Origin: a marine group bacterium Sva0996 bin134
GTDB lineage: Bacteria > Actinomycetota > Acidimicrobiia > Acidimicrobiales > Bin134
Assembly (NCBI GenBank): GCA_002239105.1
Contig: MPNQ01000010.1
Location: 14,638 to 78,637, forward strand
Reading direction: 5' to 3'
Length of the DNA stretch: 64,000 nt
The notes beneath the pieces are model-generated. The model had not been told where the DNA came from and did not search any database. It saw only the letters and a list, made by a program, of their open reading frames with translations. The position numbers and the translations under genes are program-made. Of the stretch, positions 20,204 through 59,479 are shown piece after piece. Position 1 is the first letter of the stretch. The number at the start of each line of letters is the position of its first letter.

Positions 20204-22591
20204 TCATCTGGTCCAGGAAACGGCGCAACCATCGTCGACCCCTGGGATGTCTCCATCTATGCCTTCTTCCCAATTCATGGCATTCGCGGCCGCGGCCGGC
20301 ATGGGGTACGGGGGTTCCAAGTTCCACTCCGCGGTGAATCCAGGAATGTCGGAGTAGGTCGTCGCTAGGCCTCGGCACTCTGATTCGAATCTCGCCGACA
20401 GGGCATTCCAATTGGCGATGCTTCCCAAAGCACCTGGTTGATTTGCCGCGGCAATGGATCTTGCGTTCAGCTGTACGGCCGTACTCCTCGCCAGGGTCCT
20501 ACGGGGAGTGAGGGCGTCGTCTGGTTCGTCGGGGGTGTCTGGATCGTCGGGGGTGCCCGTGGAGACAGGCTCCCCGGTGACCTCCGGCGGAACAGGCCCT
20601 ACTGGCCGACCCAGACAGGCGGTTACCTCTGTTTCCCGCGGGTGCTCCTCGTCGGCAAGCGGTGTCTGGTCCATGATGCGACCGACCAGTTCTTCGGTGT
20701 CATTGGGGATTTCACAGTCGGGAATGGGTTGGATCAGCACCAGTTCCAACTCCGTCAACCGCTCAGCGGCGGTGTCCGGGGTCAGCCCGATCAGGCTGGG
20801 CACCACCACGTTCTCCGGACCCGTGGATATCAGGATCACAATTGGGGAATCGGGCAGCAACAAGACGGGGGGCGCCGGATCGGTGCTGATCACCAGACCC
20901 TCCTCCACTTCGTCGGAAGGCTCCTCAACTACTTCGTCGCTCACCTCCAGACCGGCTTGGGCCAATATCTGGGTGGCTCGCAGCAAGGTCATCCCCATGA
21001 CATCGGGCACCTCTATGGCTTGAATCCCCTCGGCCACAAAGAGCACCACCGAGGTGCCCGGAGCAACCTCAGTTTGGGCCGCAGGATCTTGGCGAAGCAC
21101 CTGTCCTGCCGGCGCAGTAGAGCCCTCCACCACTTGCAGCTCGGAGGGGAACCCCCGGTCCTGCAAGAAGCGGACCGCATCGCTGGCGTCTTGGCCCACC
21201 ACTGGGGGCACGGGCACCGGAGCCACCCCCGAGCTCACCGTGATCTCGATCTCCCCACCCGACTCCGCTTCGGACAGCGCGGCCGGGGATTGGGAGATCA
21301 CCTCATTGCTGGCCACCGTGTCACTGGGTTCGAACACTGGGATCACCACGAAACCCTCCCCCCGAAGTTCGCGGGTCGCCATTTGGATCGACCGGCCCAC
21401 CACATCGGGCACCGTCACCAGGGCCGCTGGTGCGCTGGTCGCCACCGGTGGCGGGGCATCTTCGCCGTTGTCAAGCACGTTGGACAGCACGAAGAACACC
21501 AACACGGCCACGGCGATGAATATCACCGCCGCCGCCGTGTACAGCCCGGCCCGTGACGAGGGTTCCAAGACCGCCACCGGTGCGGGTTGGGGGGCCACTG
21601 GTGCGGGCTGCGGCGTGACCGGAGGCTGGGGTGGAGGGGCGGCTTGCGGTGGGGTGTCGTGTGGCGCCCTGGTCGGCTGCTCCGGCTCAACCGCCGGTGG
21701 GGGGGAAGCCGTCGACTGAGCTTCAGCCGCCTTTTGTCGAGGGGATAATTGATGGCGCCCCTCGCGAAAGCGCCGCAAATCCCGCTGGAGATCGTTGGCG
21801 GTCGGGTATCGCTTTGCCGGGTCTTTGGCCAGCAACTTATTGGTGATGGCCTCAAGCGATTCCGGCAGCACGATCCCCAACGATGATGGGGAGGGCACGG
21901 CCTGCTGGACATGCTTGTAGGCCACCGCCACCGAACTGTCGCCGGTGAACGGAGGGCGACCGCAGAGCATCTCGTACAGCACGATTCCCAGCGAATAAAG
22001 ATCACTGCGGTGATCTAACGGCTGTCCCTGGGCTTGCTCCGGTGAGAAGTAGGTGGCTGTTCCCATTACCGAGCCGGTCTGGGTGAGGTTCGACTCCGCA
22101 CCCCCGAACGCGGCAATGGCGATGCCGAAATCGGTTACCTTCACCTTTCCGTCGGGCGACAACAGCACATTGCCCGGCTTCACATCTCGGTGGATCACTC
22201 CGTTGTTGTGGGCAAACCCCAAAGCGGCGGCCACGTACATGGCAATCTCCGCGGCCCGCTCAGGGGGCAGGGGACCGTTCGAGCGCAGCAGTTCGGCCAA
22301 GCTCCGGCCCTCTATGTATTCCATGACGATGAAATACGTGCCCTCGTCCGATCCCCAGTCATACACCGCCACGATGTTGGGGTGATTGAGATTGGCGGCC
22401 GCGGTGGCTTCCCGCCGAAACCGCTCCACAAAGCTCGGGTCAGCGGCAAACTCCGGGAACAACCGCTTAATGGCTACCGGGCGCGACAAGAGGGTGTCCT
22501 GACCTAGGAACACGTCGGTCATACCGCCGCGAGCGATCTGATTTCGCAGTCGGTATCTACCGCCCAAAAGCTCCGGATCGTGGTCTGACAT
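20204..22591 (-). CDS. pknB: transmembrane Ser/Thr protein kinase with four PASTA repeats and an extra Cys-containing C-terminal domain
   Basis: Hanks kinase motifs (VAIK, HRDVKPGN, DFGIA, SPEQ). A Pro-rich linker with a PQPAPVA x2 repeat, one TM helix, four PASTA-like repeats (V.VPDV.G...), then about 130 unassigned aa. Confidence 0.9.
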   Translation of the reverse strand: MSDHDPELLGGRYRLRNQIARGGMTDVFLGQDTLLSRPVAIKRLFPEFAADPSFVERFRREATAAANLNHPNIVAVYDWGSDEGTYFIVMEYIEGRSLAELLRSNGPLPPERAAEIAMYVAAALGFAHNNGVIHRDVKPGNVLLSPDGKVKVTDFGIAIAAFGGAESNLTQTGSVMGTATYFSPEQAQGQPLDHRSDLYSLGIVLYEMLCGRPPFTGDSSVAVAYKHVQQAVPSPSSLGIVLPESLEAITNKLLAKDPAKRYPTANDLQRDLRRFREGRHQLSPRQKAAEAQSTASPPPAVEPEQPTRAPHDTPPQAAPPPQPPVTPQPAPVAPQPAPVAVLEPSSRAGLYTAAAVIFIAVAVLVFFVLSNVLDNGEDAPPPVATSAPAALVTVPDVVGRSIQMATRELRGEGFVVIPVFEPSDTVASNEVISQSPAALSEAESGGEIEITVSSGVAPVPVPPVVGQDASDAVRFLQDRGFPSELQVVEGSTAPAGQVLRQDPAAQTEVAPGTSVVLFVAEGIQAIEVPDVMGMTLLRATQILAQAGLEVSDEVVEEPSDEVEEGLVISTDPAPPVLLLPDSPIVILISTGPENVVVPSLIGLTPDTAAERLTELELVLIQPIPDCEIPNDTEELVGRIMDQTPLADEEHPRETEVTACLGRPVGPVPPEVTGEPVSTGTPDDPDTPDEPDDALTPRRTLARSTAVQLNARSIAAANQPGALGSIANWNALSARFESECRGLATTYSDIPGFTAEWNLEPPYPMPAAAANAMNWEEGIDGDIPGVDDGCAVSWTR

Positions 22592-22624
22592 GGCGAAAAT
22601 AGCGTAGTTGTTGTTTTGTTCGAT

Positions 22625-23422
22625 TTATGGGAGGGCTACGTCGGTCACATCGACGACTACGACCGTCACGTTGTCGCTTCCGCCGTTCTTCAAGGCGAGC
22701 CTCACCAGGGCATCGGCGGCCTCCGACGGCGACTCGGATTGACCCATGATCGCGTGGATGTCCCGGTCGTCCACCTCGTTGGTCAAACCATCAGAGCAGA
22801 GCAGATAGCGATGCCCGCTCACCGGCACCAGAGTCCAGTCGTCAACCACCACTGTTGACTCGATGCCCAGCGCTCGGCTCAGGCGATGCCGAAGTTCGTG
22901 AAAGCCGGCCTCCTGTCGGGTGATCATCCCGGCCTTCACCATCTCATGCACCACAGTGTGGTCTTCAGTCAGTTGGTGAAGGCCGCTCTCGTCGCAGCGG
23001 TACACCCGGGAGTCCCCGACATTGACCACGGCCAGCGCTTCGTCGTGGTCGTCTTCGACCACGGCCAGCGCACACAACGTTGTCCCCATGCCCGCCAAAT
23101 CAGCGATGGAGTTGGACTGGGAAAAGATCTCCGCATTCGCCCGGTCCACCGCATCCAACAACTCCCCCACCGTAGGAGCCGGAGAATCTGATGAGCGGCG
23201 GCCGAACAGATTGCGACGCCGGCCTTCGCTACGGGCTTCAACCGCGGCTTTGATTTCAGCAGCCAGCGTCTCCACTGCAATTGCCGACGCCACCTCCCCT
23301 CCCCGGTGCCCACCTAGCCCGTCGGCGACCGCGAAGAGTTCACCTTCAACCAGCATCGAATCTTCGTTTTTCTCTCGACGTCGGCCTCGATCGGTGGCTT
23401 GTCCCGTTTCCAGCCGGATCAT
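22625..23422 (-). CDS. pstP: PP2C-family Ser/Thr phosphatase (soluble, no TM segment)
   Basis: ATDRGRRREKNEDS, FAVADGLGGHRGGEVAS, LLCSDGL, and DNVTVVVVD are PP2C motifs. Immediately upstream of pknB on the same strand. Confidence 0.9.
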   Translation of the reverse strand: MIRLETGQATDRGRRREKNEDSMLVEGELFAVADGLGGHRGGEVASAIAVETLAAEIKAAVEARSEGRRRNLFGRRSSDSPAPTVGELLDAVDRANAEIFSQSNSIADLAGMGTTLCALAVVEDDHDEALAVVNVGDSRVYRCDESGLHQLTEDHTVVHEMVKAGMITRQEAGFHELRHRLSRALGIESTVVVDDWTLVPVSGHRYLLCSDGLTNEVDDRDIHAIMGQSESPSEAADALVRLALKNGGSDNVTVVVVDVTDVALP

Positions 23423-23574: not shown

Positions 23575-23658
<84 letters not shown>

Positions 23659-23667
23659 CATCGTTGA

Positions 23668-24171
23668 TCAGCCCACCGTCCCCGTGGGGGTGGGGGTGGG
23701 AACCTCGGTCACCGGGATGACCGGGGGCGGGCCCCAGGCAATGGCGGCTTTGGAGAAACCCGCGGCCATGGCCACGGTGAGGGCCAACTCGGCCAACTCG
23801 GCCGGGGTGAACTCCTCGCTCAGCGCCTCCTGATCTGCCCCGGTGAGCCCCGATGGGTCGGAGATCACCGCATCGGCCATCCGCAGAGCCAGCTTGAACC
23901 GCTCGGGCAATTCGCTGTCGGTATAGCCATCGTCGATCTGATCTACCAGTTCTTCAGTGAGCCCCTGCTGCTTCGCACCTGCGAAGCGGAGGTTCTTTCA
24001 AATGTTGCAATCGTTGACTCGGGCATTGCGGAGCCGGCCCACCTCCTTGGTGGCCTGGTCGAGCTGTCCTTCGCTCCACAGCGTGCCGTAGAAGCGGTTG
24101 AACACAGCGAACAGCTCAGGCTGGTGGTCGAACAGCGACATTCCCCCTTCGGGGATGGCGATTCTGGTCAT
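23668..24171 (-). CDS. AhpD-like / carboxymuconolactone decarboxylase family selenoprotein (codon 58 UGA read as selenocysteine; motif C-N-I-U)
   Basis: ATG at 24171 with AAAGGAG 7 nt upstream. The single in-frame TGA (24000-23998) falls at the second Cys position of the family CxxC. The frame stays open for a further 109 codons, and a SECIS-like hairpin follows. The track shows it as two ORFs (23998..24285 and 23668..23910). Confidence 0.75.
23962..23992 (-). promoter_or_regulatory. bacterial SECIS-like stem-loop downstream of the in-frame UGA
   Basis: mRNA reads UGA AAGAA CCUCC GCUUCGC AGGU GCGAAGC AGCA GGGG. This gives a 7-bp upper stem, an AGGU apical loop with G and U at +23/+24 from the UGA, a 4-nt bulge, and a 4-bp lower stem. 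Confidence 0.65.
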
Positions 24172-24545
24172 GGGATGACTCCTTTCAACGCGGCCCGACT
24201 GCGAGCCAGGGCCTCGAACGTGGCGATGGCCGTGGTGAGGGCGGCCAACTCGGGGGGCGATAACCAGGCGTTCATCTCGGCGCACAGCTCATCGGTCACC
24301 CCATGGGCATCAAGAACGTACTGCTCGGTAAACGCCAGCACGACCCTCTCCCGGTCGTCTTGGGGGTTCCGGGCCGGCGGCCCCCCACCGACCATTTGCT
24401 CGACGCGAGCCGCACACAGCTCCAGCAAGGCGGCATTCAACCCCGTTCCATCGAGGGCCTGCACCAACTCATCCAGCGGCCCGGCAACATGGGAGTCCAA
24501 TGCCGCCAGCGGATTGTCGGTCGAAGAAATGTCCATCGGGGTCAT
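24168..24545 (-). CDS. AhpD-like / CMD-fold protein lacking the CxxC motif
   Basis: ATG at 24545 overlaps the MBL stop (ATGA), and its own stop overlaps the selenoprotein ATG (ATGA). LLELCAARVEQM...FTEQYVLDAHGVTDE...LSPPELAALTTAIATFEAL resembles CMD-family helices. Confidence 0.55.
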   Translation of the reverse strand: MTPMDISSTDNPLAALDSHVAGPLDELVQALDGTGLNAALLELCAARVEQMVGGGPPARNPQDDRERVVLAFTEQYVLDAHGVTDELCAEMNAWLSPPELAALTTAIATFEALARSRAALKGVIP

Positions 24546-25268: not shown

Positions 25269-26456
25269 CTACGCAACCGGCTCGTCATCGCCTTTGCGGC
25301 GCCATGCCTCTTCCGCCAACGACACCACTTCGCGGGCCGGCAGCCCTAGCAGCTTCGACGCCCGCACGGCCTCGTCGTGTTCGACTTTCACCCGACCAGC
25401 ACCAACTTTCACGCGGATCCGCCTCCCGTCCACATCAACTTCTTGTTCGAACCGCGACCGAGGCCACCGTTCGATCAACTGCCCTCGCACGCCCAGCGAA
25501 CCGGTCTCGTCAGCCAGCGTGGCTGCTACTTGATCGCCCACCGCGGGATCGGCCAATGCGCTCACCGTGTACGCCGGCCGTCCCTTCTTCATGACAATCG
25601 GCGTGATCCAGGCGTCGTGGGCTCCCGCATTCAAGAGCGCGGCCACGCTATGAGCCAGCGTCTCTCCAGTGGCGTCGTCAACGTTGGTCTCGAAGAGCAT
25701 CACGGGCTGGCCCTCGGGGCGAGCCGCCGCCATTGTGCCCACCACCACCTGGGTGAGGTTGGGGCGGTCTTCCAGCTGGTTCTCACCGGCGCCGAATCCG
25801 GCGGCCGAGATGGTCATGGGCGGCATGGGGCCCCACCCCGCGGCCAACGCCGACAAGATCGCCGCGCCGGTCGGCGTGGTCAGCTCCAACCCCACATCCA
25901 ACCCAAACGTCGGACACCCCACCAACAGTTCAACCACCGCGGGCGGCGGGTTGGGCAGCCGCCCGTGCGCGCTGCGAATCATCCCCCGTCCACACGCCAC
26001 CGCACTGGAGTGGACTTCGTCGATTCCCAGCACCTCCAGCGCGGCGCACGTGCCCACCACGTCGATGATGGCGTCCAGCCCGCCGACCTCATGAAAGTGG
26101 ACCTGCTCGGGCGGCCGGCGATGCAACTTGCCCTCGGCTCGCGACAGGGCGTCGAACACCGCCAAGGCCCTGTCGGCCACGCGGTCGGGCAGCCGAGCCT
26201 CCCCGATGAGCGCGTTGATATGACTGGCCGTGCGCACCACCGAAGTCTCCCGGGTGATCACCCTCACGTCGGTGGCGGCAATGCCTCCCCGCTGGGTGGG
26301 ATGGGCTTGAAGATCCCACCCTCCCAATGGCAGCAGCTCGCAAATCTCCCGCACTTCAACCACATCGGCTCCGGCGTCGATCAGCGCCCCCAGCGCCATG
26401 TCGCCGGCGATCCCGCTAAAGCAGTGAAACCAGGCAATGCGCGCCGGCTCAGCCAT
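25269..26456 (-). CDS. larC: nickel-pincer cofactor biosynthesis protein LarC (DUF111 family)
   Basis: IAWFHCFSGIAGDMALGALIDAGAD... N-terminal signature, FHEVGGLDAIIDVVG, 395 aa. Confidence 0.85.
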   Translation of the reverse strand: MAEPARIAWFHCFSGIAGDMALGALIDAGADVVEVREICELLPLGGWDLQAHPTQRGGIAATDVRVITRETSVVRTASHINALIGEARLPDRVADRALAVFDALSRAEGKLHRRPPEQVHFHEVGGLDAIIDVVGTCAALEVLGIDEVHSSAVACGRGMIRSAHGRLPNPPPAVVELLVGCPTFGLDVGLELTTPTGAAILSALAAGWGPMPPMTISAAGFGAGENQLEDRPNLTQVVVGTMAAARPEGQPVMLFETNVDDATGETLAHSVAALLNAGAHDAWITPIVMKKGRPAYTVSALADPAVGDQVAATLADETGSLGVRGQLIERWPRSRFEQEVDVDGRRIRVKVGAGRVKVEHDEAVRASKLLGLPAREVVSLAEEAWRRKGDDEPVA

Positions 26457-27234
26457 CGCTTGCTCCGCTCATCTCCGCCTCCGATGCCGCCCGGTCTCTC
26501 GACTTGAACAATCGCAGCACCGCGCAGGCTGCGCCGAAGCCATTGTCCACCCCCACCACGGTCACCCCCGCAGCACACGACGACAACATGGCCAAGAGCG
26601 GGGTGACCCCCTCAAGGGATGACCCGTAACCTGTGCTGGTGGGCACCGCCACCACTGGGGCCGCGGTCAGCCCGCCCACCACCGAGGCCAGCGCTCCTTC
26701 CATACCGGCTACCACCACAACGGCGTCGGCTGATGCCAACTCCTCGACGTCACCGAGAATCCGGTGAAGCCCGGCCACCCCCACATCGTTCAACCTCCGC
26801 GGCGCCAGTCCGTGAGCGGCCAGCACTACCCCGCATTCGTCGGCCACCGGGAGATCAGCCGTTCCCGCAGCGGCCAGAACCACCCGCTCTGGTCGTGGCG
26901 GCGCCGGGCGCCAGACAACGGTGGTGTCGTAGTGCTCCCCCTCGGGATTGAGGGCCAAGGCGGCCGCGGCCTGCTCGGCGGAAGCCCTTGTCAACATCAC
27001 TGGACCGCCCGGCTGATCCAACAGCTCCCTCACGATGGCCGCGCACTGGTGAGCCGTCTTGCCCGGGCCGTAGACAACCTCGGCCAACCCCTGGCGCAGG
27101 CTGCGATGGTGGTCCACCCGGGCAAAGCCCAAATCGGCGAACGGTAGTCGCCTCAATTGCCTCACTGCGTCGTCCGGCGACACCGTGCCGTCGCGTACAT
27201 CGGCCATCAATTGCCGAAAAAAGGCTTCATCCAC
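26449..27234 (-). CDS. larB: nickel-pincer cofactor biosynthesis protein LarB (PurE-like NaAD carboxylase/hydrolase)
   Basis: DLGFARVDHHR, AAAGTADLPVADE, VVAGMEGALASVVGGL, and PTSTGYG are LarB-type PurE-fold motifs. 8-nt overlap with larC. Confidence 0.85.
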   Translation of the reverse strand: MDEAFFRQLMADVRDGTVSPDDAVRQLRRLPFADLGFARVDHHRSLRQGLAEVVYGPGKTAHQCAAIVRELLDQPGGPVMLTRASAEQAAAALALNPEGEHYDTTVVWRPAPPRPERVVLAAAGTADLPVADECGVVLAAHGLAPRRLNDVGVAGLHRILGDVEELASADAVVVVAGMEGALASVVGGLTAAPVVAVPTSTGYGSSLEGVTPLLAMLSSCAAGVTVVGVDNGFGAACAVLRLFKSRDRAASEAEMSGASDG

Positions 27235-33020: not shown

Positions 33021-33991
33021 GCGCCGGCGAACTCCTCGCAAACAACCCCTTGCCCCTCTAGAACACCCAGAAACTCCGCTGCGTCCACCACCTCAGCCAG
33101 CCCCACTGCCCCCATCTGGTGCACTCTTCCTGCTGCAATGAGCTCTATGGCACTCATCAACACTGCGGCCGTTACCGTGCCGGGCGGTGCCGAGGCGCCC
33201 AGAATCTCCCCGGTCCACTCTTGGCCCCTCTGCCCGCGCACCTCAACCCTCACCGCCCCCAGCTTCCCCTCCGGATGCGGCGACCGCAGCATCGGCAACC
33301 AAGAGCTGAAGCGATCCCTGCGAGTGGCCGCCATTCGGGCGGTGATCCGATCTGCCCTGCTGAACTTTCGGACCAGCAGCATCGGGTCGGGCAGCGCCGC
33401 TCGATAGCAGTCAGCTGCATCCACCGGACTGGGAAACCAGCACAGCTCCCGGCCCGAACCTCCTGGCCGCTGCTTCCACCCCCCTCTCCACTCCAACGCC
33501 AGCGAGCTCAAAGCCCTGTGATGCTGGCGGGCGCAAGCTGGCCCCCCTGTGCCGAATTTGGCAACGTGCACCTCTGTCACCCGATCGAGCTCGGCGGCCG
33601 CCCGAACGGCCAGAACATCGCTCAACCCTGGAGCCATACCCACCCCGGCCACCACCAGCGTGTCCTGCCGCTGTGCGGCTTCGTTCATGCCTAGGAGACG
33701 CTTCACATCGGTCATCGAGTCAGAGGTGGACAGCATCACTCGTCCGCGGCTCAGAAATCGACGGGCCAACCGGGCTTGGCTGCCTGATGCCGTGGCCAAC
33801 ACCACGATGTCTGCTGAGTCGTCAAGGCTGCCCACAGTGACCGGCGAGCCGTGCTTCTCCGACAATTGCCAAGCACGTTCGGGATTGCGGTCGGCAACTG
33901 CCACCCGGCCCCCGGCCAGCAACGGCCAATCGGCCAGGCGCTGCACCAAACCAGCGCCGACTACGCCCCCGCCGACAACCAGAATGTCCAT
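33017..33991 (-). CDS. NAD(P)-binding protein, saccharopine-dehydrogenase-like
   Basis: ATG at 33991 gives MDILVVGGGVVGAGL, a Rossmann start. The remainder resembles the Sacchrp_dh N-terminal/C-terminal architecture only loosely. Confidence 0.45.
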   Translation of the reverse strand: MDILVVGGGVVGAGLVQRLADWPLLAGGRVAVADRNPERAWQLSEKHGSPVTVGSLDDSADIVVLATASGSQARLARRFLSRGRVMLSTSDSMTDVKRLLGMNEAAQRQDTLVVAGVGMAPGLSDVLAVRAAAELDRVTEVHVAKFGTGGPACARQHHRALSSLALEWRGGWKQRPGGSGRELCWFPSPVDAADCYRAALPDPMLLVRKFSRADRITARMAATRRDRFSSWLPMLRSPHPEGKLGAVRVEVRGQRGQEWTGEILGASAPPGTVTAAVLMSAIELIAAGRVHQMGAVGLAEVVDAAEFLGVLEGQGVVCEEFAGA

Positions 33992-59029: not shown

Positions 59030-59479
59030 TTACGTGCTTCCGCTGCGGTAGCGGTCAACCATTGACGAGGAGTCCGCCGACACGGTCAGGCTGCCGGGAA
59101 TGTCTAGCAAGGTCAGATCTGACAACCGAACGACACATGACACCTGGACATGCACCTTCCCTCCCGGTTGAAGGTCCATCTGTCGTATGCGAACTTGTGG
59201 CCCGCCTTGGCAGCCAACATTCAACTGGCCCAAGGAAGCTTCAGCAGTCGTGGTGGCTGCCGCTTGGGCCGCCGCAACCGACTGGTATTGGGAGGCGGCT
59301 CGGGCGGAGCTGCCGGCAGCGATCGTCAACTTGCTCTCGGTCACCCCTACTCGACCGGCGGCTACGACAAGGAACAAGACCGTGGCCATGACGGGGGTGA
59401 GGACTGCCAGCCCAATCACGCTGCTGCCCCGCTCGAATGCATCATCGAACCGCTGGCGCCCCGGAGGGTTACCCTTCAT
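59030..59479 (-). CDS. TadE-like pseudopilin
   Basis: ERGSSVIGLAVLTPVMATVLFLVVAAGRV... is the TadE N-terminal motif. Confidence 0.6.
   Translation of the reverse strand: MKGNPPGRQRFDDAFERGSSVIGLAVLTPVMATVLFLVVAAGRVGVTESKLTIAAGSSARAASQYQSVAAAQAAATTTAEASLGQLNVGCQGGPQVRIRQMDLQPGGKVHVQVSCVVRLSDLTLLDIPGSLTVSADSSSMVDRYRSGST

Follow-up and report, generated by a model that had tools for sequence, protein, structure and literature searches.

The stretch of DNA analysed here, referred to as the window, comprises 64,000 nucleotides (nt) from the marine group bacterium Sva0996 bin134 (Acidimicrobiales; assembly GCA_002239105.1, contig MPNQ01000010.1, positions 14,638 to 78,637 of the forward strand), and its minus strand carries a gene that is interrupted by an in-frame TGA. 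An initial reading of the letters and of a list of open reading frames (ORFs), made without database searches and called here the sequence-only reading, had proposed that this TGA encodes selenocysteine (Sec) in a protein related to AhpD and to carboxymuconolactone decarboxylase (CMD), and that a selenocysteine insertion sequence (SECIS) hairpin follows it. Here we describe the gene, its relatives and its hairpin, and weigh whether a selenoprotein is the best explanation for them.

The interrupted gene and its annotation

Read directly, the minus-strand frame from ATG 24171-24169 to TGA 23670-23668 is interrupted only by TGA 24000-23998, and the 87 nt (29 codons) from this TGA to TTG 23910 are open, with the translation KNLRFAGAKQQGLTEELVDQIDDGYTDSE. 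This agrees with the sequence-only reading, which had also placed the start at ATG 24171, with AAAGGAG 7 nt upstream and an ATGA overlap with the TGA stop of the upstream ORF; both signals were found there, and the start is further backed by the homologues, whose N-termini read M-R-I-x-x-P-E-G-G in an alignment of 24 full-length sequences. The 167-residue product, for which a place in the CMD/AhpD family had been proposed from the letters, indeed scores 41.5 bits (E = 1.3e-10) with the PF02627 (CMD) model, whose cut-off is 23, when Cys is entered in place of U, and its active-site motif is D-C55-N-I-U58. TGA is also used as a true stop in the same genome, where it terminates both this gene and the partner gene that lies upstream of it.

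The ORF list enters the two halves of the gene apart, as 24285..23998 and 23910..23668. The window is 100% identical to an ENA contig and to GCA_026710925.1 JAPOQC010000103.1, and the public gene calls at that identical locus are likewise two ORFs, of 57 and 80 amino acids (aa), so that the expectation of the sequence-only reading that standard gene callers would miss the gene was borne out. Identical sequence is found in independent assemblies (ENA, NCBI and Logan: L052-L054), while the DNA identity of the window to genomes of the Poriferisocius type is 80-84%. The coordinates of the gene, its hairpin and the neighbouring features are collected in Table 1.

Table 1. Features of the probable selenoprotein locus and its neighbourhood, with positions in the window
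Feature	Position	Strand	Details and evidence
Complete coding sequence (CDS) of the probable selenoprotein	23668..24171	-	167 codons including Sec58, then stop TGA 23670-23668; translation, PF02627, alignment with 24 homologues
In-frame UGA, probably read as selenocysteine, residue 58	23998..24000	-	Aligned with the invariant second Cys of CxxC
Shine-Dalgarno-like AAAGGAG	24179..24185	-	7 nt 5' of the ATG; direct reading
Putative SECIS hairpin	23964..23992	-	nt +9 to +37 from the U of UGA; RNAfold -18.2 kcal/mol and comparative data
Upper stem, 7 bp, GCUUCGC/GCGAAGC	23987-23981 with 23976-23970	-	RNAfold
Apical loop AGGU	23980-23977	-	G23/U24 at 23978/23977
Weaker lower stem	23992-23989 with 23968-23964	-	Minimum free energy (MFE) pairs C9-G37, C10-G36, U11-A35, C12-G33
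Upstream partner gene, 125 aa	24168..24545	-	ATG 24545, alternative GTG 24566; ORF list, public 125-aa call
Metallo-beta-lactamase (MBL)-fold gene, 238 aa	24542..25258	-	PF00753; stop overlaps partner start by 4 nt
LarC-like gene (PF01969 Ni_insertion, 395 aa) and LarB-like gene (PF00731 AIRC, 261 aa)	25269-27234	-	Directly upstream of the MBL-fold gene
tRNA-Leu(CAG)	23575-23659	+	Convergent; ends 8 nt from the selenoprotein stop codon
PP2C phosphatase gene and gene for a 795-aa PASTA-domain Ser/Thr kinase	20204-23422	-	Downstream of the selenoprotein gene

We also scanned the 64-kb window for a second selenoprotein gene, looking for a TGA followed by a stem of at least 6 bp with GU near +23/+24 and flanked by open frames, and none was supported. 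The four other hits, at 33822-33824, 59241-59243 and 21069-21071 on the minus strand and at 23665-23667 on the plus strand, have translations that look like out-of-frame or antisense noise.

Relatives carry cysteine or TGA in the same column

Among 421 homologues from a protein search, the best are 60-70% identical to the product, 166-172 residues long and uninterrupted; those with JGI names are called 'alkylhydroperoxidase family enzyme' or 'AhpD family'. In the alignment of 24 full-length homologues the TGA occupies the column of the second Cys of C-x-I-C, which is invariant; this is the position that the sequence-only reading had assigned to it. The residues after the TGA (KNLRFAGA) are among the best conserved of the family. 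The column is always Cys in homologues that do not have the TGA, and at the nucleotide level it contains TGA in 80 distinct sequences and TGC or TGT in 29.

Using the degenerate pattern C-x-I-TGA-[KR]-N-L-R-F-x-G-A to scan the GTDB species-representative genomes, we obtained 48 matches in species-level genomes. These are mostly Acidimicrobiia, with a few metagenome-assembled genomes (MAGs) of Acidobacteriota, and many of them are complete chromosomes labelled 'Candidatus Poriferisocius' (Acidimicrobiales). In all 48 the frame stays open past the TGA and runs through a conserved C-terminal half to a normal stop. A scan of metagenomes with the family alignment added many further TGA forms from soils, sediments and lakes or other freshwater, bringing the total to 88 distinct Sec-type proteins, whose identity goes as low as 49%, with 132 Cys-type proteins beside them. 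The number of distinct Sec-type sequences depends on the analysis and is 80 for the hairpin comparison, 88 for the proteins and the tree, and 90 for the entropy.

Relatives that end or shift frame at the TGA, or a lack of coding-type conservation behind it, had been named by the sequence-only reading as signs that would speak against a selenoprotein, and neither was seen. The frame after the TGA is open for 98-124 codons in 98 TGA-bearing loci, which contain no frameshifts. On the 3' side of the hairpin, third codon positions vary most (68, 53 and 95 of 97 sites are variable at codon positions 1, 2 and 3, respectively), and the codon differences relative to the window comprise 1308 synonymous and 988 non-synonymous ones (57% synonymous). 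The variable third positions and the synonymous excess thus rule out that the gene is a pseudogene, that the TGA is a sequencing error or that two small ORFs are used separately.

The residue before the first Cys also separates the two groups. It is Asp in all 88 distinct Sec-type proteins (D-C-x-x-U; residue 54 in the window, 24012-24010), whereas the Cys-type proteins mostly have Gly (G-C-x-x-C) and only about 10 have Asp. This Asp may be a sign that the active site has co-adapted to selenium. The nearest neighbour of every Sec-type protein is another Sec-type protein. A single origin of the Sec forms was considered and not retained, as the smallest neighbour-joining clade with all 88 also holds 18 Cys-type proteins and leaves clean monophyly unsupported; the mixed clade reflects either switching between Sec and Cys or noise in the tree, two causes that are inseparable here. 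In one Acidobacteriota MAG (CAVTAI01, MFD04651.bin.2.135) the Sec-type gene occurs on two contigs (L013 and L019) with an identical protein, which is either a duplication or a redundancy of assembly or binning.

A conserved hairpin accompanies the TGA

The hairpin that the sequence-only reading had drawn was recovered by RNAfold as far as its 7-bp upper stem and AGGU apical loop are concerned, while the lower stem pairs slightly differently in the MFE fold and is conserved in part only. With loop G's at +22/+23 and a stem of 7 bp, the hairpin fits the general rule for bacterial SECIS elements, which have a stem of 6-8 bp and a conserved loop G about 20 nt 3' of the UGA (PMC4605307). The stability of a single folded sequence was not counted as evidence, and significance was drawn from the comparative data only.

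For such a comparison the Sec-type and Cys-type sets constitute an unusually clean natural experiment, and they show how a SECIS inside a coding sequence fixes the amino acids and the synonymous sites at once. Among distinct sequences, Ala codon 7 is GCA in 80/80 of the Sec-type and 1/29 of the Cys-type, Gly codon 8 is GGT in 80/80 and 5/29, and the loop AGGT is present in every one of the 80 and in none of the 29. All seven stem pairs can form in 75 of the 80 Sec-type sequences, whereas the Cys-type sequences reach a maximum of five. The third-position entropy of the Sec-type genes is 0.17 bits in hairpin codons +4 to +10 compared to 0.95 bits in 45 upstream codons, and the corresponding values for the Cys-type genes are 1.01 and 0.90 bits. 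The amino acids over the hairpin differ as well, most Sec-type proteins having AGA-[K/R/Q]-QQ-G and the Cys-type proteins AR-[D/E]-x-G, and the nearest Cys-type relatives do not have the GCA-GGT-GCG-AAG arrangement. Judged from these alignments, the hairpin tracks the TGA and not the protein.

Within the Sec-type set, stem pair 18-27 is C-G in 76 sequences, U-A in three and U-G in one, and so includes a compensatory change from C-G to U-A. Pairs 15-30 and 16-29 show changes to G-U only, and in a subgroup of five sequences pair 17-28 is a U-C mismatch. At the level of loci, Gln in place of Lys after AGA (GCGCAGC) produces the mid-stem U-C mismatch in L007, L014, L016, L025, L043 and L047; the mismatch sits roughly at the position of the unpaired U in the hairpin of Escherichia coli fdhF, and the hairpins predicted for this Gln subgroup are weaker, at -11 to -16 kcal/mol.

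Protein family and fold

A profile of the family matches PA0269 (2ijc, 2o4d), Pseudomonas aeruginosa AhpD (7xw1) and Atu0492 (2gmy) with E = 4e-9 to 1e-7, and in the profile alignment the CxxC of these structures lies over C-N-I-U. For P0003, a Cys homologue of 70% identity, the AlphaFold model has a confidence (pLDDT) of 88.8 and shows the all-helical AhpD-like fold, with template modelling (TM) scores of 0.65-0.80 to PA0269, Atu0492 and 'AhpD core' entries. Residues E43, C55 and U58 all occupy invariant columns of the 24-homologue alignment. R62 is invariant in the subfamily at the place, four residues after the second Cys, where the proton-relay His is expected.

Membership in the NCBIfam families of AhpD-domain proteins and selenoproteins NF053654, TIGR01926, NF041047, NF041537 and NF045649 was rejected, as the scores lie far below the cut-offs; the YciW-related model NF053654 gave the best match, 29.4 bits (cut-off 310), the peroxidase-related TIGR01926 25.4 (81.8) and the GSU3128 model NF041047 16.5 (110). 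The P0003 model also matches Bmp8, a thiol-dependent debrominase with the CMD fold (6ohj/6ohi; TM 0.64, 17% identity). With many of the hosts being sponge symbionts, a dehalogenase-type substrate is conceivable from this structural match.

The partner gene and the neighbourhood

The gene directly upstream encodes a divergent CMD-fold protein that has one conserved Cys (LELCxxR, LELC-R-x-R) and no CxxC. A homologue of this partner lies directly upstream on the same strand at 118 of 135 loci, Sec-type and Cys-type alike. The partner protein of the window itself gave no Pfam match, and its affinity to CMD proteins rests on the orthologue in a Cys-type locus (L049), which has 165 residues and matches PF02627, together with a weak match to NF053654. 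In the lineage of the window the partner has a deletion of about 23 residues, a segment (...AAGLTEEKIxxLxQWPTSPxY...) that is present in other Sec-type and Cys-type loci.

The MBL-fold gene is probably co-transcribed with the partner and selenoprotein genes. Since other genes flank the Cys-type locus L049, this linkage may be peculiar to the lineage of the window, and it is uncertain whether the MBL-fold gene belongs to the same functional unit. The LarC-like and LarB-like genes belong to the biosynthesis of the nickel-pincer cofactor; LarA and LarE were not noticed nearby. There is no ahpC among the neighbouring genes.

On the other side, the same tRNA-Leu(CAG) is found beside the gene in about 28 of 48 related genomes, and the junction is therefore syntenic. 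The genes for the PP2C phosphatase and the PASTA-domain kinase, with crgA, gyrA and a DUF3566 gene nearby (flanks in L052), represent a conserved origin-proximal actinobacterial cluster.

Discussion

The data are best explained by a single functional gene that encodes an AhpD-like selenoprotein of 167 residues with the redox centre C55-x-x-U58, a conclusion to which we assign a probability of about 0.93. According to the mechanism that we propose, a ribosome arriving at UGA 24000-23998 would meet a downstream mRNA that, as the comparative evidence suggests, folds into the 7-bp stem and AGGU loop. The loop G and U would then lie 23 and 24 nt from the U of the UGA, and decoding would proceed by the mechanism that operates at E. 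coli fdhF. The hairpin would be formed by the codons for R-F-A-G-A-K-Q, and this double role would constrain the amino acids as well as the synonymous sites (GCA, GGT). From the homology to AhpD-like proteins, Sec58 is predicted to cycle together with Cys55 between the selenol/thiol and the selenenylsulfide, and the protein to be a peroxide- or disulfide-reducing oxidoreductase that probably works with its co-translated, single-Cys CMD-like partner.

Several observations weigh against this conclusion. The hairpin of the window, taken alone, is not significant (z = -1.49), and 18/200 shuffled sequences fold equally well. The covariation is thin, because the stem barely varies; double changes occur at one pair only, and the related sequences are not independent of one another. 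Unlike the hairpin of fdhF, the one described here has no bulged U, its upper stem being a perfect 7 bp. No Rfam model matched, either with the window at gathering thresholds or with positions 23900-24060 at E<=10, and the scans gave only two tRNAs and one chance hit to a long non-coding RNA; this negative is uninformative because there is no usable Rfam model for bacterial SECIS elements of this kind. No family-specific NCBIfam model scores above its cut-off, and the relay His is replaced by Arg62, which makes AhpD-like chemistry an extrapolation. Finally, neither tRNA-Sec (ARAGORN on the window and 50 related loci) nor selA, selB or selD (tblastn of the E. coli proteins SelA, SelB and SelD over the window and every locus) was found in the 64 kb of the window or in the related loci, which amount to about 0.6 Mb. 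As far too little of any genome is covered by these sequences, this is no argument against the hypothesis, and Sec machinery is assumed for this genome. The full machinery has been described in all 84 complete genomes of Actinomarina, which belongs to the same class, Acidimicrobiia, and to a different order, and it is reported from mycobacteria as well.

Three other explanations have to be considered. The first is that the UGA is decoded by a SECIS/SelB-like route, or by a suppressor tRNA, with a residue other than Sec (Cys via a tRNA with the anticodon UCA, or Trp through near-cognate read-through at a low level), giving a full-length product that is free of selenium. What the comparative data prove is that the UGA is translated and that an RNA element is conserved; they do not prove which residue is inserted, and the absence of Sec machinery from the available sequence would agree with such a product. 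Yet Cys in every homologue without the TGA is what one classically sees in a Sec/Cys column, the hairpin shares its loop sequence and register with a proven SelB-dependent SECIS, and the Sec trait is on record for this class. Moreover, TGC would insert Cys without a costly hairpin, yet the TGA and the hairpin have been kept in about 80-90 distinct sequences, and recoding of UGA to Cys of this kind is, to our knowledge, rare. We consider this explanation very improbable.

The second explanation, in which a 57-residue N-terminal peptide and an 80-residue protein starting at TTG 23910 are made separately and the hairpin has a regulatory or stabilising role, has in its favour that the public gene calls show precisely these ORFs. 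Termination also competes with Sec insertion in known systems (in E. coli the efficiency of insertion is reported as 40%), and the 57-residue product is likely to arise where selenium is scarce. Two products would, however, leave the 29-codon stretch from the TGA to the TTG untranslated, and that stretch is the best-conserved segment and aligns residue by residue with the Cys-type homologues. The single-domain fold spans both parts, and the TTG is not a conserved start, the homologues having an internal Leu there, and we regard this explanation as very improbable, even more so than the first. The third, that a single change from TGC or TGT to TGA, or an error in the assembly, inactivated an ordinary Cys-type AhpD-like gene, is effectively refuted: the TGA is one substitution from either Cys codon and Cys-type homologues are common, but the identical sequence stands in independent assemblies, the same TGA is found with constrained, intact downstream frames in 48 species genomes and many metagenomes, and decay does not explain a conserved hairpin that is specific to the TGA.

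Beyond the selenoprotein itself, the observations taken jointly could describe a distinct subfamily that lies outside the curated models, is characterised by D-C-x-x-U, an Arg for the relay His and an obligate, overlapping, single-Cys partner with the CMD fold, is widespread in Acidimicrobiia and soil Acidobacteriota, and is split by gene callers. The pair would in that case form a hetero-oligomeric selenol/thiol redox enzyme whose substrate, as no ahpC gene lies nearby, would be other than the classical AhpC. We offer this combined proposal tentatively and consider it rather unlikely to hold in all its parts. Candidate substrates for such a hetero-oligomer are small-molecule hydroperoxides, persulfides and, as in Bmp8, compounds subject to thiol-dependent dehalogenation; if the last were true, Bmp8-like dehalogenation would be notable in a sponge symbiont.

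For annotation, the consequence of the selenoprotein reading is that public data list a single 167-residue enzyme as a meaningless pair of ORFs, 57 and 80 residues long. At least 48 species-level genomes share this error, among them the complete 'Candidatus Poriferisocius' chromosomes, and there is no NCBIfam model to rescue the gene. The selenoprotein reading would also imply that sponge-associated and soil members of the Acidimicrobiia and Acidobacteriota depend on selenium and spend Sec on a redox protein of the AhpD type. How Sec decoding and the AhpD family are currently understood is not altered by these findings; of note to specialists are the clean contrast between Sec-type and Cys-type genes, a loop and register identical to those of fdhF in another phylum, the conservation of the partner gene and the scale of the annotation gap.

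Comparison with known systems

The hairpin compares most directly with that of E. coli fdhF. After UGA140, fdhF reads TGA CAC GGC CCA TCG GTT GCA GGT CTG and the window reads TGA AAG AAC CTC CGC TTC GCA GGT GCG, such that both have GCAGGU at nt 19-24, with GCA GGU as codons 7-8, both have G23/U24 in the apical loop at +23/+24 from the U of the UGA, and in both the hairpin lies inside the CDS, directly 3' of the UGA. The sequence-only reading had named this register, and the actual fdhF sequence, with GCA GGT at codons 7-8, substantiates it. We take G23 and U24 of fdhF to be the SelB contacts. The two hairpins differ in that fdhF, folded with RNAfold, leaves U18 (numbered with the U of the UGA as 1) unpaired in the 5' arm and has an interrupted upper stem of 3+3 bp; the loop is AGGU in the window gene and GGUC in fdhF, the lower stems are unrelated, and the host phyla are different. 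The label 'fdhF-type' given to the hairpin by the sequence-only reading is therefore apt for the loop sequence and register and does not extend to the bulged U of the fdhF upper stem.

As a protein, the gene product resembles P. aeruginosa PA0269 in its all-helical fold (TM 0.66-0.80 for the P0003 model) and, by the same model, differs in structure from Mycobacterium tuberculosis AhpD (TM <0.45). The relay residues of M. tuberculosis AhpD are Glu118, Cys130, His132, Cys133 and His137, and PA0269 has Glu36, Cys48, Cys51 and the relay His55 as counterparts; here E43, C55, I57, U58 and R62 stand in place of the five AhpD residues. Common to all three proteins are the Glu 12 residues before the first Cys and the C-x-x-C spacing, whereas the product described here has Sec for the second Cys, Ile57 for the relay His or Tyr, and Arg62 for His137 or His55. 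The arrangement of two adjacent CMD-fold genes, one of which has a CxxC-type motif, resembles that of TIGR04030 (perox_Avi_7169), which we take to be paired with an adjacent CMD-domain gene; the window gene, with 19.6 bits against a cut-off of 233, is no member of that family.

The precedent for AhpD-like selenoproteins to which the sequence-only reading had referred does exist in published CxxU families. A Sargasso Sea survey of 2005 reported an AhpD-like (COG2128) selenoprotein with CxxU, the Global Ocean Sampling survey of 2008 listed 'AhpD-like 1' (COG2128) as its fourth most abundant family along with 'AhpD-like 2' (pfam02627), and the table of a 2026 review contains a 'CMD-like protein PF02627 CxxU'. 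AhpD-like CxxU selenoproteins are thus an established family, known since 2005, of which the present gene is an unannotated further member. Here the published members were compared by description, and the models tied to them (TIGR01926, NF053654 and NF041047) match the window gene far below their cut-offs. The gene shares with them the PF02627 fold family, the Sec at the second position of CxxC, and a bacterial SECIS with a small, G-containing apical loop directly after the UGA. What may set it apart from them is the invariant Asp before the first Cys, the Arg in place of the relay His and the conserved single-Cys CMD partner, and its hosts are sponge-associated Acidimicrobiia and soil Acidobacteriota.

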